This document shows positions 27,534 to 54,925 of a stretch of 64,000 bases of DNA, piece by piece (positions within the stretch are counted from its first letter, which is position 1; every line of letters starts with the position of its first letter). The stretch is from Candidatus Omnitrophota bacterium. GTDB taxonomy: Bacteria > Omnitrophota > Omnitrophia > Omnitrophales > JACROU01. The notes under the pieces were generated by a model. The model made no database searches. It had not been told where the DNA came from and worked only from the letters and a program-made list of their open reading frames with translations. The stretch spans positions 34,313 through 98,312 of the forward strand of contig JAJDCD010000008.1 in the NCBI GenBank assembly GCA_029261035.1. The letters run 5' to 3'. The position numbers and the translations under genes were made by a program.

Positions 27534-27899
27534 ATGAGTAAAAAAATACTAATCGTGGACGACGAAATCGAGATATTAGAGACTCTCAAAGACTACCTCA
27601 CAGAGGAAGGCTTTGATGTTTTACTGGCTAAGAATAGAGAAGAATTCTTTAACCACGCTCAAAACACGCCTCCAGATTTGATCATCCTAGACATCGTTAT
27701 TGGCCCAGAAAATGGCCCGCAAATGTACAACGAATTAGTCCACAAGGGCTTCGATCCCGAAATTCCCGTCATATTCCTATCTGGGCTCTTAGAAGACCGG
27801 CCACCTTCTTACAGTTACGAAGGCCGAAAAACATCTCTCCTCGGAAAACCCTTTGACCCCAAAAAGCTAGTAGAAGAAATCAATAACCTAATCAAATAG
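27534..27899 (+). CDS. stand-alone response-regulator receiver domain (CheY-like), no output domain
   Basis: 121 aa: KILIVDDEIEILETLKDYL...PDLIILDIVIGPENGPQMY...IPVIFLSG, with receiver acidic pocket DD and phospho-acceptor Asp in LIILD. Confidence 0.8.
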   Translation: MSKKILIVDDEIEILETLKDYLTEEGFDVLLAKNREEFFNHAQNTPPDLIILDIVIGPENGPQMYNELVHKGFDPEIPVIFLSGLLEDRPPSYSYEGRKTSLLGKPFDPKKLVEEINNLIK

Positions 27900-28238: not shown

Positions 28239-31200
28239 TTACGCTGCTTGTGCAACAAGTCGTTCTGCTTCAATAGATAATCTTAAATTTTCTAGCAAAT
28301 CAAAAACAAGATGACTTCCCTCTAATCGAATACCCTTAACACCTAAAGTATCTTCAAACCACTCAGGATGAATCACAACACCATCGCTAGCAACTTTGGC
28401 TCTAGCTAAAACTAATTTAAATACAAAGGCAGCTAAACCTTCCCTGATTTCCCCATCCGCCTTTGAGTAACTCGCTGTCATATACTCTTCAGGTATTTTA
28501 GATTCCATCTCTCCCCATACGCCCTCAGTCATTATTCCAATTTTCAGACTATCAGAACGATCACTAAAAGTTTGTCTTCTAGCTTGTTTTTTAACAAAGC
28601 GAATATTAGTTTTTCCGTGAAGAACAGATCCTTTCCTCATCCATTCTGAAGCTTTAATCCTCTCATCATGATCTCTGGGGTTATATAGAATATATAACTG
28701 ATCTCTCTCTTTCATTTGCTGTATCCATTCTGGAAACGACTTCATGAGCCCTTCAAAAGAACTTAAATCTAAAATCACATCTACAACCTGATCCCCTATA
28801 AAAATATCTGAGTAATTCACCTTAATCTGATCCAAATCTCTTCTATCAACACTCCACATCAAAGTTGCTATCTCCATCGCACGAGTGAGAACCTCAGGCA
28901 TTTCCCGAGTAGATTGATATAACTGCCAAAAAGAACGTTTATACTCCTTACTTAGCTGAACTCCAAGAGCTGTTTCCAAATATTCAGCCAATAAAACTTC
29001 AGAAGAAAAATCTTCTTGCAGCAAGTGCGTTAACACAACATCCAATGAGAGAGTTTCACCTAAACTTCTGGCCAAGACTTCTCTATCAAGCCAAGGAGAT
29101 TCATCTTCTGGCACCACAAGTGTTTCAGAGGATTGACTCACTGCAAAAAATAGCTTGTTCAGTTGTTGAAACAAAACCTCCCAATCATCAGCACCATGTC
29201 TCTCAAAAACTTCTAATACCTCTTCAATTTTTCTAAAATCTTTATTCATTCCAATCTTTCCCAGAACTAACATCATTTTTCTTTTAGCTTCTTCAGAAAT
29301 ATCGTTTCTACTAAAGATTATCGTTAGAACCTCTTTTATTTGGGTCTCAATATTTTTTATTTGATTTTCATTAAACTCTAAAGGAATTTGGTATAAAAAG
29401 AAATAAGCTAAAAACAACCATTCTTTTGCTGTAGTGAACAAGTTTAAAAGATCCATACGGATGATATTTCCATTCAATCTTCCCTTACTAATACCGCTAC
29501 TTAAACTATTAAGAATATTTAAATAATTCCCTGGTAAGAATAAAAGAGCCCACTCTTTCTTAAAAAAATAATTATTTAACTCTGAATCGGATAATAGATA
29601 AAATTGGTTTAAAGCATACATCCAATTTTCTTCATTTAAACCTACAAATAATTCTATTAAATCAATATCCGCAAAGAGATTTTTTTCTGGGTTACTAATA
29701 GCCTCAGTAATAATCTTTTTAAATTCTAATGCTTCAAAATGAACAGGCGTTGATCGGGGCATTTTTCGAATCATTTCTAAGTAAATCATGATCCAACGTT
29801 CTATAAATTTTTCATCCATATTGGGATTTGCTTCTAAAAATGAAAAGAAAACATCCTTATAAACAGCCTGTGTCACAACGGGGTATTTCAGTTCAAACTC
29901 TTCAAATGAGAGTCCTAAACGTTCTGGTAAAATAGACGCTTCATAATCTTCTTCAAACCCTAAACTTTGACCTTGAATAGTTTCAAGATTGTTTTTGGTC
30001 AATTCAGCTGAAACTCCAATAACCCCGCCCAAACTAGTGGCATCCACAATTTCCCGACCCGATCCACTTAAGCTAGAACTTCCTCCTCTGGCTCCAGGAG
30101 AATAAACACCTTGTATAATATTGGATAAAACTTTCTTCATTGTTTCTGGCAATTTTGAAAGCTCGTTGTCTTTGAGTGAAAAGGAGAATTGAGACCCATA
30201 CACTTCTATCACATCCTCTGTTCCGGTCCCTAAACCTATACCAACATAATCCACAACAGAACCACCGACTCTTCCATTCTTCTTTCTTAACTCTTCCAAA
30301 AAGGCCATTACTTGATCTCTTGTACCCATACCATCTGTAATGACAAATACGTAGTGACGCTCTCCACCTACTTTTTGAATATCTTCCATTGATTTAAGAA
30401 TCGCGCTAAAGTCATCAGTGCCTCCATGAGCACCAATAGATCGGTATAAATCTTCTATTAAATATTCTTTTTCTCTTCGCGTTCCGTAAGACTGAGGCAC
30501 CGCATCAGCACCCTCTCTTAAGTCTTCTGGCTCTGTTTTTTGTCCCTTAAAACGCTTATGAAGGTGCGTTGAGCTACCAAAGCCTCGAACGGCAAAATCA
30601 ATACCAAGGTTTTGCAACGTTTCCATAAACACCACAGCTCCTTTAAGGGCGTTGTAACCCGCCATCCCTGCATGGGTGGGTTTATTGGCCTCAGAGTCTG
30701 CTGGAGTCCCTGACATACTGCCACTTTGGTCAATGAGCAGGGTGAATTTAATATCCTTCTTCTGTGGTAACACCTTTTGCTTATAGAACCTCATGTCCAC
30801 AAAGCCTCGAGCCATCGAATTCATTAACCGCCTAATATCAATGCGGCCTTTTTTCATTCCCGTAACTTCTTTAGGTCTTAAGGAGTTTTGAATCAAATCT
30901 CTTAAGTAGCCCGTTAAAGTCATAATAGTTCCTCCTAACCAACCCATCAGGTTGTCTCTTAGAGACCTAGGCTCGTTAATAGAAGCATCTTTCATAGCAT
31001 CTTGGTAATCTGTAGAATCTTCTTTAGTTCTATCTTTGGCATTTCCTGCAGCACCTTTTTTAATTTCATCTACTATCTTTGATTTATCTTTTTCTCCCAA
31101 AGCTTCCCAAATCTTTTTCCAATCCTTATCTGAAATTTTCTTTTTGCGCTTATCTTTAATTTTCCCTTCCACTGTCGCTCCCTCGCCTGAAGAATCTCCT

Positions 31201-34200
31201 GTAGAAGGTTGCTCAGGCATATCCCCTTCAATAATTAAATCTCCTTTAATTGTGATCTTTCCTTTGCTCGGTTTCCCTCCAGGAGGAGCTCCTGGCCCTA
31301 TATGAACATCTCCTTCGATAATAAGGTCTCCATCCCCAGACTCTCCTTCACCCTCTCCCTGCCCTTGCCCTTGACCTTGACCTTGACCCTGCCCTTGACC
31401 ACCCTTACCTTTATCTTTTTTCTGATTTTCCTGAGCATCTCGAACAGCCCATTTATAAACAACGGGCATAACAATGTCTTTGATCATCTCACCTTGTTCA
31501 CGAGCTAATTCTATTATTTTCACGTCCCCCTCTCTAAGTTCCGACTGAAAACGAGGAAGTCCTACATCGTCAAAGGTAACCGGAATCTTCGCGAATACAC
31601 TTCTCATTTGTGCTCGTTGATATTTACCTAGAATTTCATCTCTGTCTCCACCTTTATAGTGGTATCGATCCTTATCCCATGTCCCAAAAACTCCCGTAGC
31701 CAACAATTTCTCAACATCCTTTCTAAGGTCCGCATCCTTCTCACCAATAATTTCTAAAATTCTTGGGAACTTATCCTTAGAATCATCAAAATCTCCTCTT
31801 TTTGCTAACCACAACATTAGATTACTTAAGATGGATGAATAACTATGGTCTGTCTTAAATAGCTGTTCAACATCTTCCGTCCTAAACACAGCCTCATCAT
31901 TCATTCGTTTCAAAAAACGTGCGGCTCCTTTAAAACGTAATTTTGCCCAGTTCTCTATTCGACCATCTTCAATTATGTTGAATACGGTAGCTCCTAAAGA
32001 TGTATCTTTTAGAAATTCATAAAAAAGAGAAGAGTACCAAGTAGCATAGCGATGCATTGCTTCATGAATCGCTGTTCCTAGTACAGACTCTAAACTTTCC
32101 TCCATTAGAGCGCTTGCCGGAACAATCACCATGTTTTTACCTCTGTTAAATGCCCAATTCGCATCTTTTCCTGTTCTCACTTCTACATTCACTGTTCCTT
32201 TACTTACAGTTTCAAATGCTTGAACAAATATTTCAGCACGCTGTTCAGCACCCATCAACTTCCACCGACTGTCATCCGGTAAATCTTCTAATTCATCTGC
32301 ATTTTCTAATTCTTGGAAGGGGCGGTCACTCAAGACATCCATAGAAGCCATAAGCACCTCTTCTGGGTCCTTTAATGAACTCGATTCTGAATCTAATGAA
32401 GTCATAGAAGGCTGAATCATTTGAGGCTCTAATTCCGATCTCTGTTCAGGACTTTTAGGATCTGAAGGCTCTTCTAAAAGAACAACATCTTCTTGCTCAT
32501 CCAAATTAATTTCTTTGGACTGAACCAGTTTAAGTACACGTCCCACCAAAGACTGAATTCCTCCTAACATTATTTGATACATCTCATCCCTTCTTCGTTG
32601 ACTCCGAACCCAAACTTCTCTAAAACGACTCCTTAAAGCTGGAGACAACCCTACGCGCCCTGCATTCATCCCTGTACGACCTTCTGCAGGGTTCATTGTC
32701 CCAAACAATCTAAAATTAGGGTGGATATTTACATAAACACCTCCTTTTTCCAATATGCTCATCGTCCCACGATCAAAATATTCATTCAAAACTTCAATAA
32801 CACCTGCATCAGCCATGTTAATTTCTTCTAATACAAGAGCATACCCTCTTTCCATTGCTTGAATTAATACTCCTTTTTTAAATTCCATAGTCCCTGTGGA
32901 TTCATCTAAAACAAAACTCCCTATCAAACTTTCAATCGTAGCCGCTCCTAAGGATACGGACATATAAGGCCAATAAAGTTCACGAGCAATGTCCCCAATC
33001 ATTTCTGTTTTTCCACCACCCGAATGCCCTGTTAGGAGTACAGGCTTTGATTTATGAATCTCCACAGTCGAACCTTCACTATCTCTTACCTTTACAGTGC
33101 CTCCATCTCTAAAACCTTTTAATATTTGAGACCTCACATTACCCATAGATTTAATTTCCACCAATTTATCAATACGCTCTGCTTGAGAACGGAAATACTT
33201 GTCTATAACAGATTCTAAAATCAATTTATTCTCAGGAAGGTTTTGCAACATACCACCATAGAACTCTGAAATTATTTTTTTGTACCTTTCCTTCAAAGGA
33301 AGGTCACTATCCCTATCACGAACGGCTTCATCCATGACACGAGTCATAGAGCTGTCATCAATGGGGTTTAATCGGCCGCCTTCGTTTGAAACAAAAACCC
33401 CTTCCTGAATTAAAGCATTCACCTCAATATGGAAGGAATTTAACATATCATTTAAGTCTAATTTCTTTACCTTTACTCCATTTAACTCAATCCACTCCCC
33501 TAAATCATTTTGAGTTTGTCGAATTTTATAACCATCTATGTAAATATCTTCAAAAGCAACAACAGGCTTCAGATTACTAGTGACCGCTTTAGATGCTCTG
33601 CGAAAATCACTCATTTCAAGGGTTTTTGAACCCCTTTCAAAAAACAGTCTATTCCCTTCAATTAACTCTAAGCTGAAAGTTTGAAACCTTTCTAAAAAAG
33701 TCTTTTCATCCCCATCTCCACTAGACTCTTTTCGAAACATCAATCCAAAAGCTTGATTCGTTGAAAGAAAAAAGTCAGGGTTGACTGCTCTTAATTTCTC
33801 CTCCTGACTTTCAAGGTACCGAAATTTTAAATCTGGATCAACATCACTTTTTGAGTCATCCCATTCAATACTTCTTAGTAAATTCAAGGCCCCTTCTACT
33901 TCTAACGCAAAATTAGCTGCTTGTTTTTCAATAATTTCTTCAATTGATACTTCAGCTCTACCATCATCCGATTTCATTACTTCTTGAAAAGCATTATTAT
34001 TTTCTAAACTTTCATCGAAAGACTGAATTAAGAAACGCTCAAATAAAGCATTAAGTTTATTGATATTATTATTGCGGAACGGGTCATCTGAATTTGTTTG
34101 TGATAATAATCCATAATATTCTTGATATCCTGTCTTAAGAATTAAATCAAACAAAGACTCTTCTTCAGACCCTTCTTTAGAATATTGCAAAGCATCATGA

Positions 34201-40200: not shown

Positions 40201-43200
40201 CGTTCATATATTTTAATCCGTACTTCACCTTCAATGATTTCTTCTTCAAAATCATAGATAAAATCCAAAGGGTCGTCCTCCGTTATCAATCGATGCTTAA
40301 TCATCAAATTTCTCACCTTTTGCTTATCATCCAAATTTAAGCGATTATAATATCGACGTCGTACAGCAGCAGATACTGCTTCACTAATATTCCCATCATC
40401 TTTGTAATAACTTTGAACCATACTCATGGTTTTTTTCAAATCTCTAAGACTCACAAAGAGTGTTTCATTGTTCTCCAAACCTATATCACTTCTCTCTAAA
40501 GCTTTTTCATAATCCACATGAAAATTCACAATAGAAATAAAATAACGAAACGTATAAAGTAGATCTTTTAAATTCTTTATAGAATCCCCTACCATTCCTT
40601 TATAAAGATCCATCGCTTCTCTTAATAAAGCAGACGTTCCATCTTTTGCTGTTCTTGAAATTTGGGAAATGATTTGTAAAATCTCTGTTTCTTCAGCACT
40701 TCCTTCTTCAATTTTGAAAAAATTTCTAAGACCACTTAAAGGAAGTCGGACAAAGTCTTCGACACCCATATTGGCCAGAATTACACCTAAAGTTCTAAAG
40801 CGCTCAATATCATTATGCACCATCCCTTTATAATCTTTTAAAATACGCATGAGCATCGTCTTCAACTTAATATCACCTAGCTTCCCAAATGGCAAATCCA
40901 CTCCATACGTTGATTTTGATATATCAGCAATAGCAGTTAACAATTGAAAATCTGTAGCATCTGGAAACATTTTTGATTTTATATAACTTAAACTGTTTTC
41001 GTAACCCTCTGGCCCTCTATTCATTAACCAATCAAACTCTTCCTTAGATCCAAATAGATAGATATAAGTTAATACTTTAAACCCTTCCATCCCATGCTCG
41101 TCTAAAACTTTTCTGAATTTAGTTCTTAATTTTTCATCATTAGCCCCACTTTCCTCTTTACCAAACAAAAATAGAGATATGACTTTTTGAAGCTCATAAA
41201 ATACATGATACAATTCCTTCTGAGATGCTCCTGAAGAAGTTAGAATTGCCGCTTTGGTTACATCGCGTAAGGCTAAAATATCAGGTTGAGGCCCCCATTT
41301 AGCTTCTACATCATCCGCCCAACCTTTTAGCATGTTTGGTAGCGGCTGATTGACACTGGTACTTTCTAAGTAATCTAAAAGGTAAAATTTATCTTTAATA
41401 ACATAATTCACAAGCAACTCAACATAAGGCTTTTGATACAAAAGATCTAAGTCATGAACAATATGTTTTTCAACTCTACGCAGAGAGTCTAACTTTCCTA
41501 AAAACATTTGATTCTCTGTATTAGCTAATTTATTTATATGAACAATTTTACTTAATGCAAAATCAATAATTTTAGAATGATACTGACTCACGTACCCACT
41601 TTTTTCATACTCATCCATATAAGTTCGTCCTAATATCGTTTTTATTAGAGCTACCACAGCCTCTTCTTGAGAAGAAGACATCTCAGAAATCACTTCACCA
41701 CCTTGAAAAAGCTCTATTAATAGAAAAAGGTTATCCCCAGCACTAAGGATTAACTTAAAAAAATGATCTTCCTTAGAAAAAATAGACTCCTCTGCTTCTG
41801 CAGATTGATAAAAGAGAAGTGTTTTTGAGAAAATATCGGGAAATTCTGAGTGTTGTTTAGATAAAGATACAATAATGCTCAAGACTTCATCCTTTCGGCT
41901 AGCAGGTACCCTATCCTTCGTTATCTCATTCAGTAATAATAGAGCATCCACATTTTGAGCTAGAACCTCTCTCAATTCCCCATCCAAATCTTCCCAAGCA
42001 ATATAAAGTCGCCCGGCACTCGAAATCCCTAATTCATCATATTTTTCTTTAGCTCCTAAACTTTGAGCTTCAGCATCTGCAACTGAAGACAATGAGAGCC
42101 AATCATCTTCACTTCGGACAGAAACTGTAGCTACTTGATTCTCTACTTCTGAGACCCATATTTGAGAAAGTTGAAATAATTTTTCATTCACGCTCACTAA
42201 CCCTATCTTGTCAATTTCTTCCAAAACACCCAACACTTCCATTGATTTTTTACGTGCTAGGAAATAGGGGTAACGGCCACCCTCTTCTTCATCCGTCTCT
42301 ATAGATTTGATGTTTTCATTTGTTAACAAGAACAATCTTTCCAATCTAACCAAATTTATAGGCACTTTTGATTCTCTAGTCTCAATAACATATTTTTCAT
42401 ATGCTTGATACACACGTTCTAATAAATTCAACAATTCTTCTTGAGACACATTAAAATTAATCCCTCCAAGCAAATGAGAAAATAAGAATCTGAAGAACGA
42501 CCTATTTTGCTCTGATAATTTCAACATAACCTTAGGGTTATTCTCATTGAATCTCCTCTGTAAATTCAATAAATGATTCAAAACTACTTGAGAATCCCAC
42601 CCTATATCCATATTTTGATTTGCTAATTCTAGTAAAAATGATTGAGGAAGACTCAGGGGGTGAAACTCTTGATACACTTCCTTAATTTGTTCAGGAGTAT
42701 ATGTAATGGCCTTCAAACGACCTTGGGTGTAAAGTTCAAATAAATTCACCAAAAACTCTGATTTTAAACGTGAACCGAATATCAAAATAAGGAATTGGAT
42801 ATCCATATATCCATCCATTAAAGATTCATAATCACCAACACTTTCAATTTTTTCTAACAAATCCAAAACAAGAGGGCCGTTTTCTGCATAGTCATCACCA
42901 AGTAATTTTCGCAAGTCATCCCAAAAGGTATTTTCAACAACCTCATCCATATCAACAAAGTACTCTATCATTTTTTTAAAATCCAGAATTCCAGTTCCGA
43001 AGTTATTTATAAATACATCAAACACTTTCATTTCAAACAAAATATCGAATCGAGAATCCTCATCAACCAAACTTTCAAGTATGCGAACATCCTCTAAAAT
43101 CTTATAAAAATGCCGTATTACATCTGTGTTAATATTTTCCGACACTGGAATTTTTTTATTTCTGTTTAATTTAGATTTTAAAGATTTTATATATTTAAAA

Positions 43201-46200
43201 ATACCCGTTGCTCTTAGCAAAAGATCTCGCCAACGATCCAATTTTTCATCAGAACCCTTACCTGAAATATCATTACGCACTAAGATTTCTAATATCTCAA
43301 AAACAGAAGGCCCTTCCGAGGAAACGGTAGGCTCTAAAACCAATGCTTCCTCCAAAAAAACTAAGTCCTTATATTTATCACTAAACATATCCCAAGGCAT
43401 TCCAAGAGTTTCCTCTAGCCCTGACCTATCATAAGAATCATTCCCACCTAAACTTTTAGCTTCAATCAGAACAGGAGCCCGAGATAACCAATCTCCATCT
43501 TTAGCTTTTGGTTCTTCCTCAAGACTCTCTTTCTGCATGTTTAAATCATCTTCCCACTCTCTATCTAAATTCAGCAATAATTGATAAACATCATCAACAG
43601 GAATATGATCTAGCCGTTCCAGAACTTCGATCAACTCAGGCCCCTTTAAGGTATCAACAAAATAAGGGATTTCGGTAAGTTCCAATGTTGTTGTATTGAC
43701 ATAGCCCTTTTCCTCCATCATTCCTAGAAGCTTTGGATAAAACACATTCAAAAAAACAAGCGAGTCTATTTTTTTCAACAATTCCATAACGTTGTTAAGA
43801 CGATCTACAATAGAGGAGAGCTCAGCTTGATTCATATTAGGATCTAATCCTTCTATTAATTTTAAAATAATTCGACCATTCCCCGTACTCACCCCTACAT
43901 TTCTCAAAAAATGCAAAAGGTGCCCCTCCGTTAAAAAAGAAGGATTTACTCTCCCTTCAATAACCGAATCCAAAAATCCAATAATTAAACTATGATCATC
44001 TTCAGTCAATGCTATTTCAATATCAAAAATTTGTTCTAAATATCTATCAACACCACTAATAACTCCTTTCTCTTTCAAGAGGAGTAATCGAAATAAAATT
44101 TTATTAGCTAAAAATATATGAGGACCATACAACTGATTAAATCGAATAAAGTCTTCTTTTGAATACTCCGATCGATCAATTTGATTGTTCTTAAGGAGCT
44201 CCCCCAACTCTCTGAGTGCCTTAAAAACAGATATTTGTATGTGCTTTTTTCCTAACGGGGTCTGTTTTTCTAACATGTTTTTGATTAAAGGAAAGTCTAG
44301 AACAAATGGATCAATTAATTCTTTTTCCACCAAATTCAATAAAAGATCTATTTCTTTTGTAACTAAATACACCCCCCCTGGTTCCATTTTTTGAAGGAGA
44401 TAAACAAAAAGGCTAAGATTAAAATATCTTTCTCCATCAACCTTTTTTAATTTCTGCAGCAATAGAGTGAAACGCTCTAAAAACTCATCTTCGTGCCCCT
44501 CATAAAGCTGCCTTCCGATAAGCCTTCCTATTAAAATTAAATCATCTTTTAGTTTCATGAATTCAGCCCCAGATCTTTCTTGCCCCTCTTCATCAAGAAG
44601 ACCTAAAACTGCATCTAAAAACATGCTGTACTCTTCTCCAAATACAAAAGAAAAGAAATAACGAAATTCTGCCGGCAAATCTTCCCATTCCCAACCCAGA
44701 CTCTCTTTCAATGAAGAATTATCATAAATTTCTCTCCCCCCTAAACTTTTAGCTGAAATTAAAGCTTTTCCTCTCTCTAACCATTCCCCTTCTTCACTAA
44801 TTTCTTCACTTCTCCCTCCTGCCCCTTTCTGAATTTCAACGCGCCATACTTTACGTAGGTTTTCTATTTTTTCTATAGCAGCATCCTCTCCCACTTCACT
44901 TGCAGATTCTAATATTTCTAAAACCGTTTCTATATGATAGTTATTTAAATAATAACTTTGTAACTCTTTATCCTCTACAAGAAAGCCTTCCATGTATTCA
45001 AATAACAAGCTGTAGTAAAATTCATCATCCAAAACACGCTCAATCCGCATCAACAACTCTTCAACTTCATTTCCATCCATAGTTGGAGAAATTCCCGAAA
45101 TCAATAATAGCCCCAACTTTCCATTTCCACTCATAACTCCCAAATCTTTGTACAACTCAACAATTCTCCAATTATGAATTAAATAAGTATGAGAGACTCC
45201 GTCCAAGACTCTTTTCAACAGATTTGCTAAATCAAGATAACTCCCACCATTTAGAGCCGAAAGGTTCGGTGGGAAAAACTGTTTAGCAGCATCTTTATAG
45301 CTCTTAACTTTTTCTTGAAACTGCAATTGAATTAAATGAACTATAATTTTAAAAAAGTTTTGGGCTCTCATGTTGCTTTGAGACAGTAAAGCAACCAAAT
45401 ACTCATCCTTTAAAACCCGTCGCACCTCTTCATTTTCCTTTGCCATCACACCCAAAATCTCCAGAGAATCAAAGCCTATATCTTCATTTTCATCCCTTTC
45501 ATTAACAATCAAAGCTTTGATTAGTTCAGGGTTCAATACGGATGCATCTAGTTTGCCATTACGCACATCCAGAATAAGTCGATTAATACGAGATAAACTT
45601 ACGTACGTATTAGTTTCACTCATCATAAAGAAAAAGAAATCAGAATTAAATTTTTGAGCAATGTTCTCATCTTTTAAGGAGTCTAATAAGGTTAAAGTTT
45701 CTGAAATCACCTCAGCAATGTGATTATGCCTAGACATCCCATTCTTGAAGCCAAGATCATTTAAAATGATAATATCTTTCCATTTCATTAATTCTTTTTT
45801 ATATCCCTCTACTGAGGATTCACCAACAAAATTAATTACCGCATCAAACAACCTTAACATTGAACTTTGAATCACCCGAACACTAAAACCATATTGCATT
45901 TCCTCATCGAGATCTTCCCACTTTAACCCCGTTCTCTCTTCAATCCCTGAAGCTTCAAAAAACTCTTTAGCTTCTACAAGACCTAAGCTTTTAGCTGTTG
46001 CATTAGTATTCACTTCAATTTTTTCGAGTTCCCCCTTCATCTTTACGACATCTGGCCAATGAACAATCTCTCTCACCATCCCATTCATCTCAGCAGGAGA
46101 GATCGTTCCCTGTGAAGCCATTCTACGAATCAACGATAATCCCCATTCAACAAGAGCTGCTTTCCCCTGCACACCATCCAAAAACCGAGCTTCAGCTTCA

Positions 46201-47642
46201 GCTCTTAAATTAGCAATAGACAAGACAGATGCTTCTTTTAAGGTCGCCTGGATTGCCAAATAATTGTCCATTCTTTTTTTGTAAGAAACGCTTTTGTTTT
46301 GGAATTCAAAACTAGGCTTAACAACCTGAATACCCCATCCTCTTTCTTCAAACTCTTCCTTGAGGCGGCTCGTATGAAAACCTCCCATATGAATCACCAT
46401 TCTACGATTCCCACCTTTAACTTCTTGATTTATCTTCTTCATAAAGCCCGATTCCCTTTGAATTGCTAATTCATAGTATTCCTCTATAGGTTGAGGTAGT
46501 TTTAAACCCAACACTTGAATCAACTCCCATTCTTTTCGAATTAGTTTTAGATCAAAAGCTTTTGTTTTTAGCTCCATTTCTTTTGATTTTAAAAACAATG
46601 CTTTTTGGGCTTCTGTAATCAATAAATTATTCTTTATTTCATCTACATATTTTTTTAAATCATAGAGTATTTGAATGGATAGGGCTGGAGGAGACGTTTT
46701 TAAATCCTTTTCTTCTTTCATCAATCTATTGGGTCCGAGAATCATCTTCATACTATGAAGGTACTCTCTTGGGCTAATCAAAGAGCTCATCCATTGTTGT
46801 TGAGTCGATCCCCACTGTTTAGAAACTTCTTTAGATAAACGCTCATTCTTGATTCTTTTCTCAACCAAAGGGATTTGCTTTTCTACATAAGGCTCCATTT
46901 CCCTTTGATAGGTTTCCCAATCCCACAACAACCTTAACTCTCCAGAAGCTTCCACTTCCTGAAACTTCTTTATGTATGTTAGCCAAACATCAATAACACC
47001 ACTTTTTTGATACATTCTTTCCTTTTCTTCCAATTCCAAAACCTCTTCGGGATAAATTTCCAACTTCTTTTGATTTAACTCTTCTAATTCTTGGGCTAAC
47101 ACCATTCGAGCATCCTTCAATAGAACACTGTTCTGTACGTCAAAATAGGCTTTAACGTTCTTTTGATATAAAGATTCTTGATCCAATCCTTTAAATTGAG
47201 TTATAAGCTCTCTATTCAACGCTGCAACCTCAGCGCCGTTCAAACGGCCTTCTTCTAATTCTTGAAGTAAATACGCTTGCTTTTCTAATCTATTCGGGTA
47301 ACTCTCAATTAATACACTCTCTAAAGGATGAGAAGCCCCTTCGATGAGAAATGCATGATAATCATATTGTTTTTCTAGTTGATTAAAGAGAGAAAGTATA
47401 GACTTCTGAGCCGCTATGTATCCATGAGCGTCTTCAACAATAACAACATCTACCTCAGAGCCTTTATGATAAAAACTTACTTCACCCTGATCTAACTGTA
47501 ATTGTTTGTAATTTAGTGTTGGTTTTGAAGGTGAAAAAAAAGAAGGATTAGCGAAACCCTCAGGTAGTAGCGTCCCCTGAGAGCAGAGAAAGAAAAATAA
47601 AACAAAAGTTGAAATGAGCCTATTTGTTTTTTTCATAATCAT
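28239..47642 (-). CDS. giant (6467 aa) midasin-like protein: signal peptide, about 2450-aa helical N-region, six MoxR/midasin-type AAA+ (AAA_5) modules, acidic linker, HExxH motif, GQ/GE low-complexity tract, VWA/MIDAS domain, about 620-aa C-terminal region
   Basis: One uninterrupted ORF of 19,404 nt. Six Walker-A sites lie at nt ~39945 (GVTSGGKTT), ~38490 (GQSGGGKSE), ~37375 (GETAGGKSS), ~36060 (GQTGGGKTE), ~35070 (GETAGGKST) and ~33030 (GHSGGGKTE). Odd modules carry TRIQMNxRTDExDLFGS, cf. MoxR RIQFTPDLLPSD and midasin RINNHEHTDLQEYIGSY. Acidic stretch EQEDVVLLEEPSDPKSPEQRSELEPQ...ENADELEDLPDD. HEAMH at 32053-32067. GKGGQGQGQGQGQGQGEGEGE at ~31350-31400. MIDAS motif LLIDQSGSMSG at ~30707-30745. 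Confidence 0.85.
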   Translation of the reverse strand: MIMKKTNRLISTFVLFFFLCSQGTLLPEGFANPSFFSPSKPTLNYKQLQLDQGEVSFYHKGSEVDVVIVEDAHGYIAAQKSILSLFNQLEKQYDYHAFLIEGASHPLESVLIESYPNRLEKQAYLLQELEEGRLNGAEVAALNRELITQFKGLDQESLYQKNVKAYFDVQNSVLLKDARMVLAQELEELNQKKLEIYPEEVLELEEKERMYQKSGVIDVWLTYIKKFQEVEASGELRLLWDWETYQREMEPYVEKQIPLVEKRIKNERLSKEVSKQWGSTQQQWMSSLISPREYLHSMKMILGPNRLMKEEKDLKTSPPALSIQILYDLKKYVDEIKNNLLITEAQKALFLKSKEMELKTKAFDLKLIRKEWELIQVLGLKLPQPIEEYYELAIQRESGFMKKINQEVKGGNRRMVIHMGGFHTSRLKEEFEERGWGIQVVKPSFEFQNKSVSYKKRMDNYLAIQATLKEASVLSIANLRAEAEARFLDGVQGKAALVEWGLSLIRRMASQGTISPAEMNGMVREIVHWPDVVKMKGELEKIEVNTNATAKSLGLVEAKEFFEASGIEERTGLKWEDLDEEMQYGFSVRVIQSSMLRLFDAVINFVGESSVEGYKKELMKWKDIIILNDLGFKNGMSRHNHIAEVISETLTLLDSLKDENIAQKFNSDFFFFMMSETNTYVSLSRINRLILDVRNGKLDASVLNPELIKALIVNERDENEDIGFDSLEILGVMAKENEEVRRVLKDEYLVALLSQSNMRAQNFFKIIVHLIQLQFQEKVKSYKDAAKQFFPPNLSALNGGSYLDLANLLKRVLDGVSHTYLIHNWRIVELYKDLGVMSGNGKLGLLLISGISPTMDGNEVEELLMRIERVLDDEFYYSLLFEYMEGFLVEDKELQSYYLNNYHIETVLEILESASEVGEDAAIEKIENLRKVWRVEIQKGAGGRSEEISEEGEWLERGKALISAKSLGGREIYDNSSLKESLGWEWEDLPAEFRYFFSFVFGEEYSMFLDAVLGLLDEEGQERSGAEFMKLKDDLILIGRLIGRQLYEGHEDEFLERFTLLLQKLKKVDGERYFNLSLFVYLLQKMEPGGVYLVTKEIDLLLNLVEKELIDPFVLDFPLIKNMLEKQTPLGKKHIQISVFKALRELGELLKNNQIDRSEYSKEDFIRFNQLYGPHIFLANKILFRLLLLKEKGVISGVDRYLEQIFDIEIALTEDDHSLIIGFLDSVIEGRVNPSFLTEGHLLHFLRNVGVSTGNGRIILKLIEGLDPNMNQAELSSIVDRLNNVMELLKKIDSLVFLNVFYPKLLGMMEEKGYVNTTTLELTEIPYFVDTLKGPELIEVLERLDHIPVDDVYQLLLNLDREWEDDLNMQKESLEEEPKAKDGDWLSRAPVLIEAKSLGGNDSYDRSGLEETLGMPWDMFSDKYKDLVFLEEALVLEPTVSSEGPSVFEILEILVRNDISGKGSDEKLDRWRDLLLRATGIFKYIKSLKSKLNRNKKIPVSENINTDVIRHFYKILEDVRILESLVDEDSRFDILFEMKVFDVFINNFGTGILDFKKMIEYFVDMDEVVENTFWDDLRKLLGDDYAENGPLVLDLLEKIESVGDYESLMDGYMDIQFLILIFGSRLKSEFLVNLFELYTQGRLKAITYTPEQIKEVYQEFHPLSLPQSFLLELANQNMDIGWDSQVVLNHLLNLQRRFNENNPKVMLKLSEQNRSFFRFLFSHLLGGINFNVSQEELLNLLERVYQAYEKYVIETRESKVPINLVRLERLFLLTNENIKSIETDEEEGGRYPYFLARKKSMEVLGVLEEIDKIGLVSVNEKLFQLSQIWVSEVENQVATVSVRSEDDWLSLSSVADAEAQSLGAKEKYDELGISSAGRLYIAWEDLDGELREVLAQNVDALLLLNEITKDRVPASRKDEVLSIIVSLSKQHSEFPDIFSKTLLFYQSAEAEESIFSKEDHFFKLILSAGDNLFLLIELFQGGEVISEMSSSQEEAVVALIKTILGRTYMDEYEKSGYVSQYHSKIIDFALSKIVHINKLANTENQMFLGKLDSLRRVEKHIVHDLDLLYQKPYVELLVNYVIKDKFYLLDYLESTSVNQPLPNMLKGWADDVEAKWGPQPDILALRDVTKAAILTSSGASQKELYHVFYELQKVISLFLFGKEESGANDEKLRTKFRKVLDEHGMEGFKVLTYIYLFGSKEEFDWLMNRGPEGYENSLSYIKSKMFPDATDFQLLTAIADISKSTYGVDLPFGKLGDIKLKTMLMRILKDYKGMVHNDIERFRTLGVILANMGVEDFVRLPLSGLRNFFKIEEGSAEETEILQIISQISRTAKDGTSALLREAMDLYKGMVGDSIKNLKDLLYTFRYFISIVNFHVDYEKALERSDIGLENNETLFVSLRDLKKTMSMVQSYYKDDGNISEAVSAAVRRRYYNRLNLDDKQKVRNLMIKHRLITEDDPLDFIYDFEEEIIEGEVRIKIYERRRPYQKTVRIVDQDDEGNDQYRFEVREIVPKEKRLLYSGMISVPISEAFPQVILNETTKRQIAHVLQGLDGGEDEKFNPVLEFGVTSGGKTTVASIVSHILNVGFTRIQVNQRTDEFDLFGSFQPREIKISLQDADKVIREALESNNLNALEDALVRMKIGKRGDFIQAFVSSPLERERITTLSLKDQNEWVVNKIKKLLSIYTGQSSHYLKQGEDSIKKGTKAWDEIRKIKSLAYILNNEVGLVYQEGRFLDAYRRGDLILLDEVNLANEEMLGVLYQMLTLGYIEYNGKVIEGEAGKIARLMATANPSSYEGRNRMSEAFMNRFEILNIDSIPDYEMANIIKGLVSRDYLGRDPDQVLKEEFGVNQDLIKYLAAIQNTINSKLLSGSFPRMGRDANYVFTMRNLLRIYQDVKELKEQGVVIDEQVWITAAYREYANILIRSPRYLDSMEDLSGKTIEIEDPEVEGGKRQRLIPGDSDFQNIRTIFSVHLGLTIKDFDEMIETSLTQFDDYEYIESESLVIGGISTQVNSEEPTERVVPPLIQTSSTKAIQYQIAKGLRRNEPVLMVGQSGGGKSEMIADLAYKLNWDYISVSLGDATLETLIGTMEYDRAEHRFIYRPGILIQAMEEGNILVLEELNMAKSGILEILNEYFDEGTFTNPFTGERVNIHHNFRLMATMNPIEGVSGENTGRVSLSPALRNRFREVWVPHEKTRSELIEIVEGRFQQKGLMGENAIQNIEKKTVERIVDFYLNYKRFFGNRLSDIYYTSIRDLTRIIYGMSYGIQELNQSENVALSLAIKRVYQSRIFEKSDGELLETLFPNIGIENVNLDSLNYEVVESGENRALNVYGIHNKVRVKVAQFDLSQLSKSLRQQIIEESDVALSEEEIERRLNVIVKDSQLVESPQTKANLMSLLATLSLSSNDVEAHKFNPTLLMGETAGGKSSLAKYAAVNLLGQSYTRIQMNERIDELDLFGSYEPREVDLSFEEAYRILMNSMSRKDWVKLRKSMSLLKHGEMDVDQIRRASSKTALYQAKDEIDMETMEELKGWLGNALSGTESQEKKAARRKVMNVAFILKNGSMNIDLEFREGRLLKSIKNGDVVVLDEINLASPEVLGVLYQLLTLGYVEYYDRQTKKIQKIRPAKGFKFIATANPATYAGRNQLGEAMMNRFEIHHIPNMTPEEMTEIISSEIKNTSVWEWEQYSLGLESAFKRLALFQKEVNRAIREGEFSNMDSSDPSKAYQFTLRNIKKIVKDTQMVLVSSDSSPPSPQILLREAYMNYRSILGRDDEDIKRLEVLFTSAEYFPKFEVPESPQKENTPKGLRMGDLFIPTRSYDDLPKGSSEADIIEELAEGKETNRIQYAIAKGLMDPKSTVMLVGQTGGGKTEMIGDLARRLRWKYRSISFGNANLESLVGGFEMEEDTKRMHYVPGALIQAMEEGAIFVIEEVNMATSGLIEILNEYFDEGTFTNPLTGEKVKIHPNFRLFATMNPEQGISSASGGRVGLSPAIRSRFNEVWVSHKKSKKEVQDIILKKFSNRQTNVSSSIVNRIYTIYSGFEKALEEGRIGTQNNEGYVTSLRDVSRIVDVISRDIQNGVSEDEALRHAVNRIYYLRLNNDDDRSVFKKDVASDLDLGSPFFEWKDEGDVWVVSRGSKVVARLEKVVLKERGFILTEESKALMSQIMDVMEHGSGVTITKFNGKKYHPLMLLGETAGGKSTMAELVAHVSGNRLTRIQMNRRTDEYDLFGSFHPVEIDMDEGKATEVLLEALEKKEYVRLERALKKLKISEDEMRLHLRDLIPKETTSEQLIELYILKYLLRSGVRGIDLNAKKKLLDLSVLLINGLTGIELIFKKGAFLEAYERGDVVLLDEVNLANEESIGVLYQLLTLGYVEFQGKKIYPGEGFQLIVSGNPSNYVGRNRMSEAFMNRFEIHHVRDMSVEEMTIILMKKYDLSKKGIRYRQLGEFVKFQIELNKKSMQGYFDSFNADQSYRFSIRNLERIIHDALQYSKEGSEEESLFDLILKTGYQEYYGLLSQTNSDDPFRNNNINKLNALFERFLIQSFDESLENNNAFQEVMKSDDGRAEVSIEEIIEKQAANFALEVEGALNLLRSIEWDDSKSDVDPDLKFRYLESQEEKLRAVNPDFFLSTNQAFGLMFRKESSGDGDEKTFLERFQTFSLELIEGNRLFFERGSKTLEMSDFRRASKAVTSNLKPVVAFEDIYIDGYKIRQTQNDLGEWIELNGVKVKKLDLNDMLNSFHIEVNALIQEGVFVSNEGGRLNPIDDSSMTRVMDEAVRDRDSDLPLKERYKKIISEFYGGMLQNLPENKLILESVIDKYFRSQAERIDKLVEIKSMGNVRSQILKGFRDGGTVKVRDSEGSTVEIHKSKPVLLTGHSGGGKTEMIGDIARELYWPYMSVSLGAATIESLIGSFVLDESTGTMEFKKGVLIQAMERGYALVLEEINMADAGVIEVLNEYFDRGTMSILEKGGVYVNIHPNFRLFGTMNPAEGRTGMNAGRVGLSPALRSRFREVWVRSQRRRDEMYQIMLGGIQSLVGRVLKLVQSKEINLDEQEDVVLLEEPSDPKSPEQRSELEPQMIQPSMTSLDSESSSLKDPEEVLMASMDVLSDRPFQELENADELEDLPDDSRWKLMGAEQRAEIFVQAFETVSKGTVNVEVRTGKDANWAFNRGKNMVIVPASALMEESLESVLGTAIHEAMHRYATWYSSLFYEFLKDTSLGATVFNIIEDGRIENWAKLRFKGAARFLKRMNDEAVFRTEDVEQLFKTDHSYSSILSNLMLWLAKRGDFDDSKDKFPRILEIIGEKDADLRKDVEKLLATGVFGTWDKDRYHYKGGDRDEILGKYQRAQMRSVFAKIPVTFDDVGLPRFQSELREGDVKIIELAREQGEMIKDIVMPVVYKWAVRDAQENQKKDKGKGGQGQGQGQGQGQGQGEGEGESGDGDLIIEGDVHIGPGAPPGGKPSKGKITIKGDLIIEGDMPEQPSTGDSSGEGATVEGKIKDKRKKKISDKDWKKIWEALGEKDKSKIVDEIKKGAAGNAKDRTKEDSTDYQDAMKDASINEPRSLRDNLMGWLGGTIMTLTGYLRDLIQNSLRPKEVTGMKKGRIDIRRLMNSMARGFVDMRFYKQKVLPQKKDIKFTLLIDQSGSMSGTPADSEANKPTHAGMAGYNALKGAVVFMETLQNLGIDFAVRGFGSSTHLHKRFKGQKTEPEDLREGADAVPQSYGTRREKEYLIEDLYRSIGAHGGTDDFSAILKSMEDIQKVGGERHYVFVITDGMGTRDQVMAFLEELRKKNGRVGGSVVDYVGIGLGTGTEDVIEVYGSQFSFSLKDNELSKLPETMKKVLSNIIQGVYSPGARGGSSSLSGSGREIVDATSLGGVIGVSAELTKNNLETIQGQSLGFEEDYEASILPERLGLSFEEFELKYPVVTQAVYKDVFFSFLEANPNMDEKFIERWIMIYLEMIRKMPRSTPVHFEALEFKKIITEAISNPEKNLFADIDLIELFVGLNEENWMYALNQFYLLSDSELNNYFFKKEWALLFLPGNYLNILNSLSSGISKGRLNGNIIRMDLLNLFTTAKEWLFLAYFFLYQIPLEFNENQIKNIETQIKEVLTIIFSRNDISEEAKRKMMLVLGKIGMNKDFRKIEEVLEVFERHGADDWEVLFQQLNKLFFAVSQSSETLVVPEDESPWLDREVLARSLGETLSLDVVLTHLLQEDFSSEVLLAEYLETALGVQLSKEYKRSFWQLYQSTREMPEVLTRAMEIATLMWSVDRRDLDQIKVNYSDIFIGDQVVDVILDLSSFEGLMKSFPEWIQQMKERDQLYILYNPRDHDERIKASEWMRKGSVLHGKTNIRFVKKQARRQTFSDRSDSLKIGIMTEGVWGEMESKIPEEYMTASYSKADGEIREGLAAFVFKLVLARAKVASDGVVIHPEWFEDTLGVKGIRLEGSHLVFDLLENLRLSIEAERLVAQAA
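30100..30780 (-). other. von Willebrand factor A (VWA) domain with intact MIDAS DxSxS motif
   Basis: KDIKFTLLIDQSGSMSG (nt 30707-30745), then downstream T and D positions (ITDGMG) consistent with a complete MIDAS. Confidence 0.7.
31348..31402 (-). repeat. in-frame hexanucleotide SSR (CCYTGM)n encoding (GQ)6(GE)3 low-complexity linker
   Basis: + strand ccctgcccttgcccttgaccttgaccttgaccctgcccttgacc; protein GKGGQGQGQGQGQGQGEGEGESGDGD, flanked by the duplicated motif GDLIIEGD. Confidence 0.8.
32053..32067 (-). other. HExxH zincin-like motif (AIHEAMHRY) between acidic linker and VWA domain
   Basis: The reverse complement of ATGCATTGCTTCATG encodes H-E-A-M-H. A possible third ligand Glu lies about 30 aa downstream (NIIEDGRIEN). 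Its position N-terminal to the VWA mirrors the putative-metallopeptidase+VWA partners of MoxR ATPases. Confidence 0.4.
32300..40150 (-). other. array of six tandem AAA+ modules (ABABAB) inside the giant ORF
   Basis: Walker-A positions listed under the giant CDS. Modules alternate between a GxT(S/A)GGK(T/S) class followed by RIQMNxRTDExDLFGS and a GQ(S/T)GGGK(S/T)E class followed by xGxAxLExLIG and NILVLEExNMAxxGxxExLNEYFDxGTF. Confidence 0.75.
47544..47642 (-). other. predicted Sec signal peptide of the giant protein (MIMKKTNRLISTFVLFFFLCSQGTLLPEGFA|NP)
   Basis: Lys-rich n-region, a 13-residue hydrophobic core and a small-residue c-region ending GFA. By eye only. Confidence 0.5.
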
Positions 47643-47691
47643 CAGTTTAATTCAGTGTATGTTATTGATAAACTTCAAGTTACCTACATTA

Positions 47692-47720
47692 AATATACCT
47701 GGAATACACACCCTTTACAA
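47692..47720 (-). promoter_or_regulatory. candidate sigma-70-type promoter for the giant gene (-35 TTGTAA, 17-nt spacer, -10 TATATT), with adjacent palindrome CTGTTA-tt-TAACAG / AAAACAGCG upstream
   Basis: Minus-strand reading: AACAGCGTTGTAAAGGGTGTGTATTCCAGGTATATTTAATG, about 45 nt upstream of the ATG at 47642. Hexamers were matched by eye only. Confidence 0.25.
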
Positions 47721-47869
47721 CGCTGTTTTAAAAACTGTTAAATAACAGCGCAAACATAAACTGATTCATAAAGGTTATATGATAGATAAGTGTTTATTAT
47801 ATATGTAGATAGGGTAATTTGAATGATTATTATGAATATACGAATACTTGTTCGACTAGATTAAGAAAA

Positions 47870-54457: not shown

Positions 54458-54925
54458 CTATTTTTTTATATTTTGTCTGCTAGTTCTAAGTGATTGTAGA
54501 ATTTCTTGATTTCTTCTTGCTTGATCTGCAATAAGTTTAACCTTTTCCTGGCGAATCACATCTTCAATTGCGCTTGTCTCAGGAGTGTCTTGAGAACGGA
54601 TTTGGTCCAAAATTTGTTGATGAATTTTTGCTTGTGTGGATATGGCTCTGATTTTTTGCATCCGTCTTAAATAATCTTCTTGCAACCTTTGATTTGCTAA
54701 CAAAACATTATTTAGTTGATTCTGAATTTTAGCAAGATCTTCATTCTCAGAAATCTTCTCTTTTTGATTTGAGTCCATTACATTCAAAGATGATCCAGAC
54801 AACGTATTCTGCAATGAAGCTATATCGGAACTTGTAGACACATCTTTAGATTGTGTCATACCAAGATGAGAGAAAGACATAAATAGAAAGGAAAACAATA
54901 ATAATTTTAAAGTCCAGACCGACAT
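54458..54925 (-). CDS. hypothetical secreted coiled-coil protein
   Basis: Signal peptide MSVWTLKLLLFSFLFMSFSHLGMTQS, then a Q/E/R-rich helical sequence. No recognised motif. Confidence 0.45.
   Translation of the reverse strand: MSVWTLKLLLFSFLFMSFSHLGMTQSKDVSTSSDIASLQNTLSGSSLNVMDSNQKEKISENEDLAKIQNQLNNVLLANQRLQEDYLRRMQKIRAISTQAKIHQQILDQIRSQDTPETSAIEDVIRQEKVKLIADQARRNQEILQSLRTSRQNIKK

Follow-up and report, generated by a model that had tools for sequence, protein, structure and literature searches.

Introduction

Midasin (Rea1/Mdn1) and dynein are the textbook AAA+ hexamers encoded as single polypeptides, and the known midasin ligands, Rsa4 and Ytm1, which carry UBL domains, belong to eukaryotic ribosome assembly (pre-60S). 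Proteins with six tandem AAA+ modules have been described as eukaryotic, with an origin from MoxR-like ancestors early in the evolution of eukaryotes (PMC3495828, PMC5100056). The MoxR-class/VWA chaperones (NorQ-NorD, CobS-CobT, CbbQ-CbbO and RavA-ViaA) fall in the same AAA+ clade and also pair a ring with a VWA domain that bears a MIDAS, an adhesion site that depends on a metal ion. In these, a single-module ATPase of ~30 kDa forms a homohexamer, and the separate VWA protein is encoded beside its target enzyme. In NorQ-NorD, a finger of the VWA reaches into the pore of the ring, and the VWA is pulled or twisted as ATP is hydrolyzed (PMC13036017). Here we describe a gene of an uncultured bacterium, Candidatus Omnitrophota, whose product differs from these chaperones in having everything fused in one 720-kDa chain, with two types of module and no adjacent gene for a partner or target. 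The gene lies in a 64,000-nucleotide (nt) stretch of contig JAJDCD010000008.1 (assembly GCA_029261035.1, positions 34,313 to 98,312), hereafter the window, in whose numbering all coordinates are given. An earlier reading of the letters alone (the original prediction) had taken it for a bacterial midasin-like machine.

The same phylum is known for very large, poorly annotated genes (Seymour et al. 2023; West-Roberts et al. 2023). These giants, defined as >20 kb or >30,000 residues, encode many transmembrane (TM) helices, adhesion and carbohydrate-active domains, and SecA-like helicases; they are poorly conserved and have few annotated domains (PMC10066038; bioRxiv 10.1101/2023.11.21.568195). 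At 19.4 kb the window gene is smaller than that definition, has no internal TM-like segment and carries no such Pfam domains, although orthologous frames exceed 21 kb. Neither giant-gene text uses the terms midasin, MoxR or vWA or describes such an ordered enzymatic core (PMC10066038; bioRxiv 10.1101/2023.11.21.568195). In the second, AAA_5 is named once, in a supplementary legend that assigns the frequent giant-protein domains to intracellular, extracellular and membrane classes (bioRxiv 10.1101/2023.11.21.568195). The phrases "bacterial midasin" and "prokaryotic midasin" were not found in the literature searched, although an earlier mention in Iyer et al. 2004 is possible. Within that literature, a prokaryotic ring made from one chain and combined with zincin-like, MIDAS and TIKI-like domains is undescribed; the combination is widespread in Omnitrophota.

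A Continuous Reading Frame

The giant open reading frame (ORF) spans 28239..47642 on the minus strand, the strand of all features of the gene given below. It comprises 6467 codons plus a stop, starts with ATG, contains no internal stops and predicts a protein of ~720 kDa. The guanine-plus-cytosine (GC) content of the region is ~35%, for which we estimate that ~7% of random codons would be stops and that an open run of this length would arise by chance with a probability of order 1e-200. In five independent contigs from metagenome-assembled genomes (MAGs), the orthologous frame is uninterrupted through the whole 21-kb retrieved stretch, or >7000 codons (L005, L007, L011, L013 and L016).

A gene of this size might instead be an artifact of assembly or annotation, either a collapsed repeat or a chimera joined through sequencing errors; the source is uncultured, internal repeats are present, and one ortholog (L008/P0007) is interrupted by a stop. 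However, the best direct internal repeats extend over no more than 273 nt with DNA identities of only 65%–78%, too diverged for assembly collapse. Only one tandem array occurs in the gene, at 31345-31400: a 6/18-nt microsatellite, CCTTGA-type when read on the plus strand. Both the architecture and the open frame recur in many independent assemblies, and the probability of a 6467-codon frame opening by chance at this GC content is negligible. Given the diverged repeats and the open orthologous frames, we put the probability of an artifact close to nil: the giant ORF is real and conserved in Omnitrophota, and the single continuous frame of the original prediction stands.

Six AAA+ Modules of Two Types

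Residues 2533-5035 constitute an AAA array. Pfam AAA_5 matches it across eight stretches (E=2.6e-111), AAA_3 matches as well (E=2.3e-35), as do the dynein domains AAA_6/AAA_7, and the NCBIfam models CobS, BchD and GvpN give partial matches only, each under its cut-off. Chunked self-comparison divides the array into three tandem two-module units in the order A-B-A-B-A-B. When hidden Markov models (HMMs) derived from family members (21 A-type modules, 25 B-type modules) are applied, they recover three large domains of A type (E 1e-111 to 1e-125), three of B type (E 1e-87 to 1e-97) and nothing more. The Pfam match, the six pairs of Walker motifs and the family HMMs agree with the six AAA_5-class modules that had been claimed for this protein.

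The modules were delimited by motifs together with the family HMMs. A1 (38838..40046) is long, with Walker A at residue 2565 and Walker B (LILLDE) at 2741; it is followed by B1 (37743..38594), short and carrying a lid, with Walker A at 3050 and Walker B ILVLEE. The second unit consists of the long A2 (36288..37499; Walker A 3418, Walker B VVVLDE), which is collinear with midasin D2, and the short, lid-bearing B2 (35328..36167; Walker A 3860, Walker B FVIEE). In the third, the long A3 (34023..35195; Walker A 4190, Walker B VVLLDE) and the short B3 (32538..33182; Walker A 4872, Walker B LVLEE), which has no lid, are separated by an insert of ~280 residues (4541-4820; 33183..34022) that, by self-comparison and ortholog identity, is conserved in its C-terminal third only. 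B3 (76% identity), B2 (73%) and the VWA (66%) are the three parts most conserved relative to the nearest ortholog, P0003.

The two types differ consistently. A-type modules place Walker A and Walker B 151-172 residues apart and have a canonical hhhhDE Walker B; they also carry the AAA_5-type signature after Walker A, TRIQ[VM]NxRxDExDLFGS, that had been pointed out from the sequence. B-type modules space the two motifs by 58-59 residues and have a Glu-Glu Walker B, VLEE[IVL]N[MF], that is invariant in the family. The GxxxxGK[ST] Walker A, the sensor-1 Asn and the NRF arginine motif are intact in all six modules; the A3 sensor-1 and the A2 arginine motif were identified by reading the sequence and the other motifs by regular expression.

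A lid with the pattern ..SLRD...YYxRL follows B1 and B2, and the B1 lid matches both Pfam DYN_lid (E=1.7e-8) and AAA_lid_5, the "Midasin AAA lid" (E=1.2e-4). None follows B3. A lid of the same B type, recognized by self-comparison as an orphan at residues 2370-2443 (40314..40535; ..SLRD..A..RRYYNRL), lies directly before A1. If the modules form a ring, the lid-less B3 and the lid ahead of A1 suggest that the N-terminal lid would complete B3, with the break in the chain falling inside a module.

A MIDAS-Bearing VWA Domain

Beyond the ring, residues 5560-5860 (30063..30965) hold a pre-VWA segment and a VWA domain with a MIDAS, assigned by profile and motifs (D5638-x-S-x-S, T5742 and D5770). The pieces of the MIDAS are DQSGS at 5638-5642, GGTDD at 5740 and ITDG at 5768, and the D-x-S-x-S and T-D-G elements are invariant in 10 of 10 aligned family members. 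As a single sequence the domain scores under the Pfam cut-off (VWA_CoxE, 23.7 bits versus 26.4); Pfam VWA is matched by eight of the ten family members, and a phage CobT-like PHROG matches too. When a profile of the ten sequences is compared with solved structures, the midasin MIDAS domain comes first (E=1.1e-19), with CobT (2.4e-12), integrin I-domains and NorD (1e-3) among the others, and the alignment to midasin runs from the pre-VWA segment through to the end. The presence of a VWA domain with a MIDAS, as originally proposed, is upheld by the intact and invariant motif and by these profile matches.

A Family of Prokaryotic Relatives

Relatives were collected by exhaustive HMMER search, a word-indexed search with the A2-B2 unit having given two matches only. 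At E<=1e-3 the search returned 3914 proteins. The top tier consists of Omnitrophota giants (P0003-P0010), the longest with 6443 residues and all or most of them partial sequences; the next consists of prokaryotic giants with HEAT-like repeats, several with TM segments (P0011, P0013, P0014, P0018, P0025 and P0061); true midasins of eukaryotes then make up a long tail (P0016 and P0019 were confirmed as such by name). Wherever their sequence reaches, the prokaryotic relatives have the order n x AAA_5, HExxH, VWA, with n equal to 2, 4 or 6. The closest homologs are annotated merely as "AAA family ATPase" or "MoxR-like ATPase", and all come from uncultured Candidatus Omnitrophota MAGs.

A scan of species-representative genomes, driven by alignments after single-sequence patterns had found nothing, identified 42 loci. 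About 15 of these are close orthologs, 42%–57% identical over the stretch from B3 to HExxH and nearly all from Omnitrophota MAGs. Distant relatives occur in MAGs labeled Planctomycetia, Elusimicrobiota, Myxococcota, Deltaproteobacteria, Sumerlaeota and others. The position of the core is fixed among orthologs, and the repeat arrays move between the two ends; the tail after the VWA is ~2000-3000 residues long in orthologs versus 829, by that count, in the window protein. No conserved gene neighborhood was found around the orthologs in the retrieved loci, because the giant gene fills them.

Proteins with two modules (A-B), HExxH and VWA are found in Elusimicrobiota and Omnitrophota MAGs (P0025, P0061 and P0012, that is, L024/L025 and relatives). 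They look like the ancestral state of the four- and six-module chains, and would need to trimerize to form a hexamer; one of them, P0025, has a multi-TM region at its C-terminus. A 4005-residue protein with six modules, HExxH and VWA (P0014, MFC1753351.1), in which ankyrin-like N-terminal repeats were seen by eye, is labeled "Thermoproteota archaeon", and a close ortholog (L010, JACPWU010000039.1) is labeled "Chlamydiae bacterium". These labels may reflect binning or labeling problems, or a broader distribution. At about position 7538 of JAHFHF010000016.1 (L008), an ortholog is split within B2 by a stop or frameshift: its product P0007 (5254 residues) stops mid-module, the next frame has at least 4585 codons, and the two combined come near 10,000 residues. 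Either the sequence contains an error there, or the gene is truly in two parts. A smaller and more distant cousin, P0002 (L002, Logan SRR25904939_1046), has 1016 residues with AAA_3/AAA_5 Pfam matches and, judged by eye, a possible C-terminal VWA-like region without DxSxS; its contig is Turneriella-like and also encodes FcpB. The spirochete (Leptospirales) origin of the window that FcpB brought to mind was rejected, the close homologs being from Omnitrophota.

Relation to Midasin

Among solved structures, the nearest relative by sequence is midasin, for the ATPase modules and for the VWA alike. The whole ring matches it with E=2.5e-88, compared to 3e-10 for CobS and ~1e-6 for NorQ and CbbQ (NorQ 2e-6). 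As whole-protein scores favor multi-module targets, single modules were also searched separately. A2 alone matches midasin with E=2.4e-66, its residues 30-292 being collinear with D2 including the long insert, and its other match is CobS only (5.5e-3). B3 has its best single-domain score against D3 (69 bits), with CobS at 48 bits. In the exhaustive search, an A2-B2 query aligns to several midasins as one stretch of ~600-650 residues. The single-module matches, the collinearity with D2 and these two-module alignments indicate that the similarity to midasin is specific and extends to the two-module unit. Midasin itself has short modules that group together (D1, D3 and D5) and long ones that do likewise (D2, D4 and D6), with Walker A-Walker B spacings in Mdn1 of 58-62 and 115-163 residues, respectively; B modules best match D3 and A modules D2.

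The MoxR-class chaperones are the next-best solved relatives, and a fused metal-cofactor insertion chaperone of the CobS-CobT/NorQ-NorD type, whose ring and VWA would open a target metalloenzyme, has to be considered. CobS, NorQ, CbbQ and BchI follow midasin among the solved relatives of the B modules, CobT is second among the VWA profile matches, where the phage CobT-like PHROG also appears, and the NCBIfam matches under cut-off (CobS, BchD and GvpN) belong here too. Nevertheless, these candidates score far under midasin, the neighborhood holds no target metalloenzyme and no cobalamin, NOR or Rubisco genes, and such chaperones possess nothing equivalent to the HExxH domain, the TIKI-like domain or the ~3000 residues of repeats. 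We judge this explanation improbable.

Specific similarity does not amount to orthology. A neighbor-joining tree of module cores (100 bootstraps), which included modules of two- and four-module proteins and of midasin, places all bacterial A modules in one clade (100%) and all B modules in another (100%), with the midasin modules outside both. The window modules pair by position with those of P0006 (A1 100%, A2 97%, B1 91%, B2 71% and B3 100% support), and the nodes that link the bacterial clades to midasin D2-D5 have 3%–24% support. Given the exclusive clades, the six modules are not one-to-one orthologs of D1-D6.

As for domain order, the original prediction overstated the match to midasin. 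Window protein and midasin share six AAA_5-type modules and a MIDAS-bearing VWA on one chain, with the VWA C-terminal to the ring, and to this extent the midasin order first proposed was right. Both also alternate short and long modules, but in a register shifted by one: the window protein runs long-short three times and midasin short-long three times, so that the window chain starts on a long module and ends on a lid-less short one. The N-terminal domain of midasin was not found in the window protein, nor was its linker of ~1700 residues, as just ~570 residues separate B3 from the VWA and the HExxH domain lies among them. The acidic, D/E-rich stretch that had been noted is likewise absent as a domain: no 60-residue segment reaches 35% D+E, compared to 50% over residues 3900-4417 of Schizosaccharomyces pombe Mdn1, and only a linker of 95 residues with 27% D+E follows the ring. 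The VWA is not at the extreme C-terminus, ~600 further residues coming after it, and the window protein adds a TIKI-like domain, a signal-like N-terminus and ~2000 residues of repeats. Outside the ring, no single-sequence match was obtained to any of 46 midasins.

These comparisons bear directly on the idea of a true midasin acquired from a eukaryote by horizontal transfer and retaining a role in ribosome assembly. Eukaryotic midasins are indeed the best matches beyond the prokaryotic family. The modules are not orthologous to D1-D6, however, and the N-terminal domain, linker and D/E-rich region of midasin are all missing; an HExxH motif is present in all prokaryotic relatives examined, as opposed to none of three midasins scanned; forms with two, four and six modules occur across several phyla; and GC content and GC skew agree with the host window. 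A transferred midasin is thus extremely improbable. The window protein appears to be specifically related to midasin and the MoxR-VWA machines without being a midasin ortholog. Most likely, to judge from the modules and their family, the six-module chain arose in bacteria, descending from an ancestor with two modules (A-B), HExxH and VWA, and midasin expanded in parallel.

A Zincin-Like Domain between Ring and VWA

By composition, a Ser/Pro/acidic linker (residues 5036-5130, 32253..32537; 27% D+E, 22% S+P) connects the ring to a zincin-like domain at residues 5131-5408 (31419..32252), with HEAMH at 5193-5197 and EDGRIENW at 5225-5232. The His, Glu and His of the motif, like the downstream Asp of (E/D)DxR(I/V)(E/N), show no variation among the 12 relatives compared, and HExxH is present in 14 of 14 orthologous loci; at this position it occurs in none of the three midasins scanned. 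A profile of the domain has no match among Pfam models and PDB sequences. An AlphaFold2 model is confident (predicted local distance difference test [pLDDT] 84; predicted template modeling score 0.83) and consists of a three-stranded sheet followed by the HExxH helix. Zincins dominate the fold matches, which are weak (Foldseek best E=0.046); these include selecase, jannalysin, ArdC, IrrE/PprI, MATCAP and the protease 6mdx (DNA-protein crosslink repair), and further BlaR1, ZMPSTE24, lethal factor and snapalysin. Minimal and M48-type zincins (selecase, jannalysin, Ste24 and BepA) share with the window domain an HExxH helix placed after a small beta-sheet and an invariant acidic residue ~30 residues downstream of HExxH. 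We read the domain, from its model, as a divergent zincin-like domain outside described families, with putative catalysis. It went unnoticed in the original prediction, as did the TIKI-like domain, the alternation of A and B modules, the helical repeat arrays with their junction motif, and the ~600 residues beyond the VWA.

Sequence inspection of 31008..31409 shows a low-complexity GQ/GE tract and short Gly-rich and Lys-rich segments. The microsatellite in the gene encodes this GQGQGQ...GEGE tract, which lies between the HExxH domain and the VWA; at the same position P0004 has GKGKGK and P0061 GEGEGE. The tract is likely to be a length-variable spacer. After the VWA, residues 5868-6467 (28242..30041) comprise two SLG-delimited units and a conserved C-terminal domain ending in ..LVAQAA. 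The last 277 residues are 37% identical to the C-terminus of P0003, and a word-indexed protein search with the C-terminal 1367 residues retrieved nothing.

The N-Terminal Region and a Signal-Like Start

Residues 1-2530 form a long N-terminal region, the first 2500 residues of which give zero matches in Pfam, NCBIfam and PDB searches. The start (residues 1-32, 47547..47642) resembles a Sec-type signal on inspection, with the n-region MIMKKTNR, the h-region LISTFVLFFFLC (a 12-residue hydrophobic core) and a c-region ending ..EGFA|NP, and comparable N-termini are found in P0007 (..NLFA|MP) and P0008 (..PSFA|LAP). Both the long region and the secretion signal of the original prediction are therefore retained, the latter as a signal-like start judged by eye. 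No further TM-like segment was found elsewhere in the giant protein. A lipoprotein signal was also considered by eye; Leu at -1 of the Cys makes a lipobox unlikely.

Comparison of a structural model suggests a domain of the TIKI/TraB/ChaN/RRSP-like fold at residues ~45-445 (46308..47510), with a putative 2His/2acid site (D71-x-H73, E101 and H423). The TIKI superfamily, characterized by an alpha/beta core and a 2His/2Glu catalytic constellation, includes Tiki, TraB/PrgY, ChaN, erythromycin esterases, RRSP and HopBA1 (PMC6254334); the window domain differs in having a helical insert of ~250 residues and Asp rather than Glu as its first acidic residue. Among the matches of the model (pLDDT 61) are two effectors, RRSP (MARTX) and HopBA1 (type III). 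No significant HMM match was obtained for the domain, and a word-indexed protein search with its alignment retrieved no homologs.

Four divergent repeats of ~430-470 residues each follow (residues 550-2069, 41436..45995). Whole-protein self-BLAST had returned the identity match only, and chunked BLAST exposed them. They have no Pfam or PDB match and are hardly conserved among orthologs. A junction motif, [DE]xWLxR...A[KQR]SLG...LGxxWEDL, recurs at residues 951-968, 1382-1399, 1845-1863 and 6181-6195 and more weakly at 550 and 5868, with lineage-specific variants (DWLAR..GASLG in P0003; LWH/LWL..RSEVR in P0004 and P0007). Possible roles for the motif are those of a hinge, a docking site or a processing site. 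The region before the ring (residues 2070-2369, 40536..41435), recognized by ortholog identity, is conserved, at 28%–42% identity in at least 12 orthologous loci. The A and B module HMMs detect no AAA domain in it, which rules out a hidden degenerate seventh module there.

Such features could also belong to a secreted or host-delivered effector polyprotein resembling MARTX toxins, exported by its signal, with repeats that attach or translocate it and an enzymatic core that acts within an ATP-containing host or prey cell, perhaps after processing at the conserved junction motifs. The Sec-like N-terminus is kept in P0007 and P0008 with no other TM-like segment in the giant protein, RRSP and HopBA1 are among the fold matches of the N-terminal domain (PMC6254334), and repeats with a conserved junction motif stand on either side of the enzymatic core. 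Omnitrophota have been described as host-dependent nanobacteria, with giant ORFs proposed to serve attachment or predation (PMC10066038; bioRxiv 10.1101/2023.11.21.568195), and the window holds a gene for a TLC ATP/ADP-translocase-like protein. On the other side, the signal peptide was assessed by eye, no secretion-system genes were found near the giant gene in the window, and proteolytic processing is a proposal prompted by the sequence motifs. To our knowledge there is no precedent for Sec export of a 720-kDa multi-domain ATPase. The distant relatives P0011, P0013 and P0025 have internal TM segments, suggestive of membrane-anchored proteins, and in West-Roberts et al. AAA_5 is confined to the one supplementary legend. 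On balance we regard an effector as rather unlikely.

Genomic Context

GC content and GC skew of the giant gene are those of the surrounding window. One flank carries genes for ArgRS, Ogt, an alanine-dehydrogenase/PNT-family protein and NadE, the other for DAHP synthase, an RNase T-like exonuclease, an inositol-monophosphatase-family protein and beta-oxidation; farther out are sigma-54, an Omp85 protein, one tRNA-Thr and others. These surroundings are those of an ordinary chromosome, consistent with the bacterial setting first assumed. The flanks are unrelated housekeeping genes, and no functionally linked neighbor was found among the genes of the window.

This context speaks to a further possibility, that of a fused MoxR-vWA conflict or anti-phage defense system in the sense of Kaur et al. 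2020. MoxR-vWA cores with peptidase effectors have been recognized in conflict systems (PMC7159879), and the giant protein has two putative hydrolase domains. Yet PADLOC returned generic P-loop matches only (IetA, BrxF and others; 23-35 bits, no matched stretch), the surroundings are housekeeping and the composition window-like, no mobile-element hallmarks occur at the giant gene, and conservation is position by position in many Omnitrophota species and not sporadic. A defense role is accordingly very improbable.

Upstream of the gene is an AT-rich intergenic spacer of 228 nt (47643..47869), described from inspection only. Read on the minus strand, a hairpin (GCGCTGTT...AACAGCG) was seen by eye at 47700-47760, just past the DAHP-synthase gene, of which it is plausibly the terminator, and this points to a separate promoter for the giant gene within the spacer. 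By eye, the ATG is not preceded by an obvious Shine-Dalgarno sequence. In the 837-nt gap downstream, a lone response-regulator receiver protein of 121 residues (27534-27899, plus strand; Pfam Response_reg E=4.8e-18) is encoded convergently to the giant gene; the window has just two plus-strand genes, of which this is one. Apart from rpoN (6249-7733), the minus strand carries every ORF that reaches 150 residues and, apart from the response regulator, the shorter genes checked. GC skew ranges from -0.17 to -0.36 throughout the window with the exception of the bin 6001-8000, which covers rpoN (-0.07).

A 911-residue protein encoded at 10566-13301 (minus strand) combines a TLC ATP/ADP-transporter domain (E=1.1e-19) with MFS, which fits an energy-parasitic, host-dependent lifestyle; ATP/ADP translocases have been reported in two Omnitrophota classes, Omnitrophia and Aquiviventia (PMC10066038). 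Genes at 1124-3966 and 58880-60970 (both minus strand) specify two adjacent GGDEF diguanylate cyclases, one with GAF, and a fusion of a cyclic-nucleotide (cNMP)-binding domain with a patatin-like phospholipase, unexpectedly much second-messenger signaling if the genome is small. Three minus-strand ORFs have no Pfam match (13446-15128, 51067-51732 and 54458-54925; 560, 221 and 155 residues), the first of which adjoins the Omp85-family gene (15139-16470).

A Proposed Mechanism

We consider it probable, with some reserve, that the giant protein is a self-contained AAA+ mechano-enzyme of the MoxR/midasin (AAA_5) class with a ring-tethered VWA, which uses ATP to capture, pull and possibly cleave its target. 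The MoxR-class/VWA chaperones provide the mechanistic template. The six modules would form one pseudo-hexameric ring, closed by packing of the B-type lid ahead of A1 onto the lid-less B3. The tethered VWA would dock on its own ring, possibly with a finger in the pore, as in midasin and NorQ-NorD, and the MIDAS metal would bind an acidic side chain of the target protein. ATP hydrolysis, probably chiefly at the A-type sites, would then pull or twist the VWA against the rest of the protein, so that the target is remodeled or extracted. The HExxH domain, and perhaps the N-terminal TIKI-like domain too, may cleave the target once it is captured or process the giant protein, and the repeat arrays may serve as scaffold or targeting surfaces.

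Several points weigh against this proposal. The Glu-Glu Walker B of the B modules may leave half of the sites inactive, and ring closure and VWA docking are read from sequence and from analogy with known machines. A conserved Sec-type signal-like N-terminus would send a machine that needs ATP out of the cytoplasm, to where ATP is lacking; either it serves as a membrane tether only, or the protein acts within a host cell. The TIKI assignment comes from a low-confidence model (pLDDT 61), and the housekeeping neighbors give no clue to the substrate. Finally, with 3%–24% support at the deep nodes, a sister relationship to midasin and a parallel expansion are tentative. The description of the protein as an uncharacterized remodeling or effector system is still a fair summary.

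Implications

The ordered domain map presented here is the first for one class of giant genes of the Omnitrophota, which are ultra-small, host-dependent bacteria. The new combination that it shows, with zincin-like, MIDAS and TIKI-like domains joined to a ring, points to a machine that uses ATP for capture, pulling and cleavage, and whether such a machine is exported is a concrete, testable question that the map raises.

For the family, the prokaryotic proteins with two, four and six modules and a midasin-like MIDAS are candidate intermediates between single-module ATPases and single-chain rings, and they indicate that single-chain rings can evolve repeatedly. It is conceivable, though we hold it doubtful, that the Omnitrophota giants and their two- and four-module prokaryotic kin are the closest prokaryotic lineage to midasin, in which case the A-B unit with its MIDAS VWA would have been present in prokaryotes beforehand, and single-chain six-module rings would have evolved from that ancestor more than once, among bacteria and on the eukaryotic stem. 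If true, this would revise the view of six tandem AAA+ modules as a eukaryotic invention made directly from a single-module MoxR protein, and would offer a tractable prokaryotic model of the mechanochemistry that links a ring to its MIDAS.

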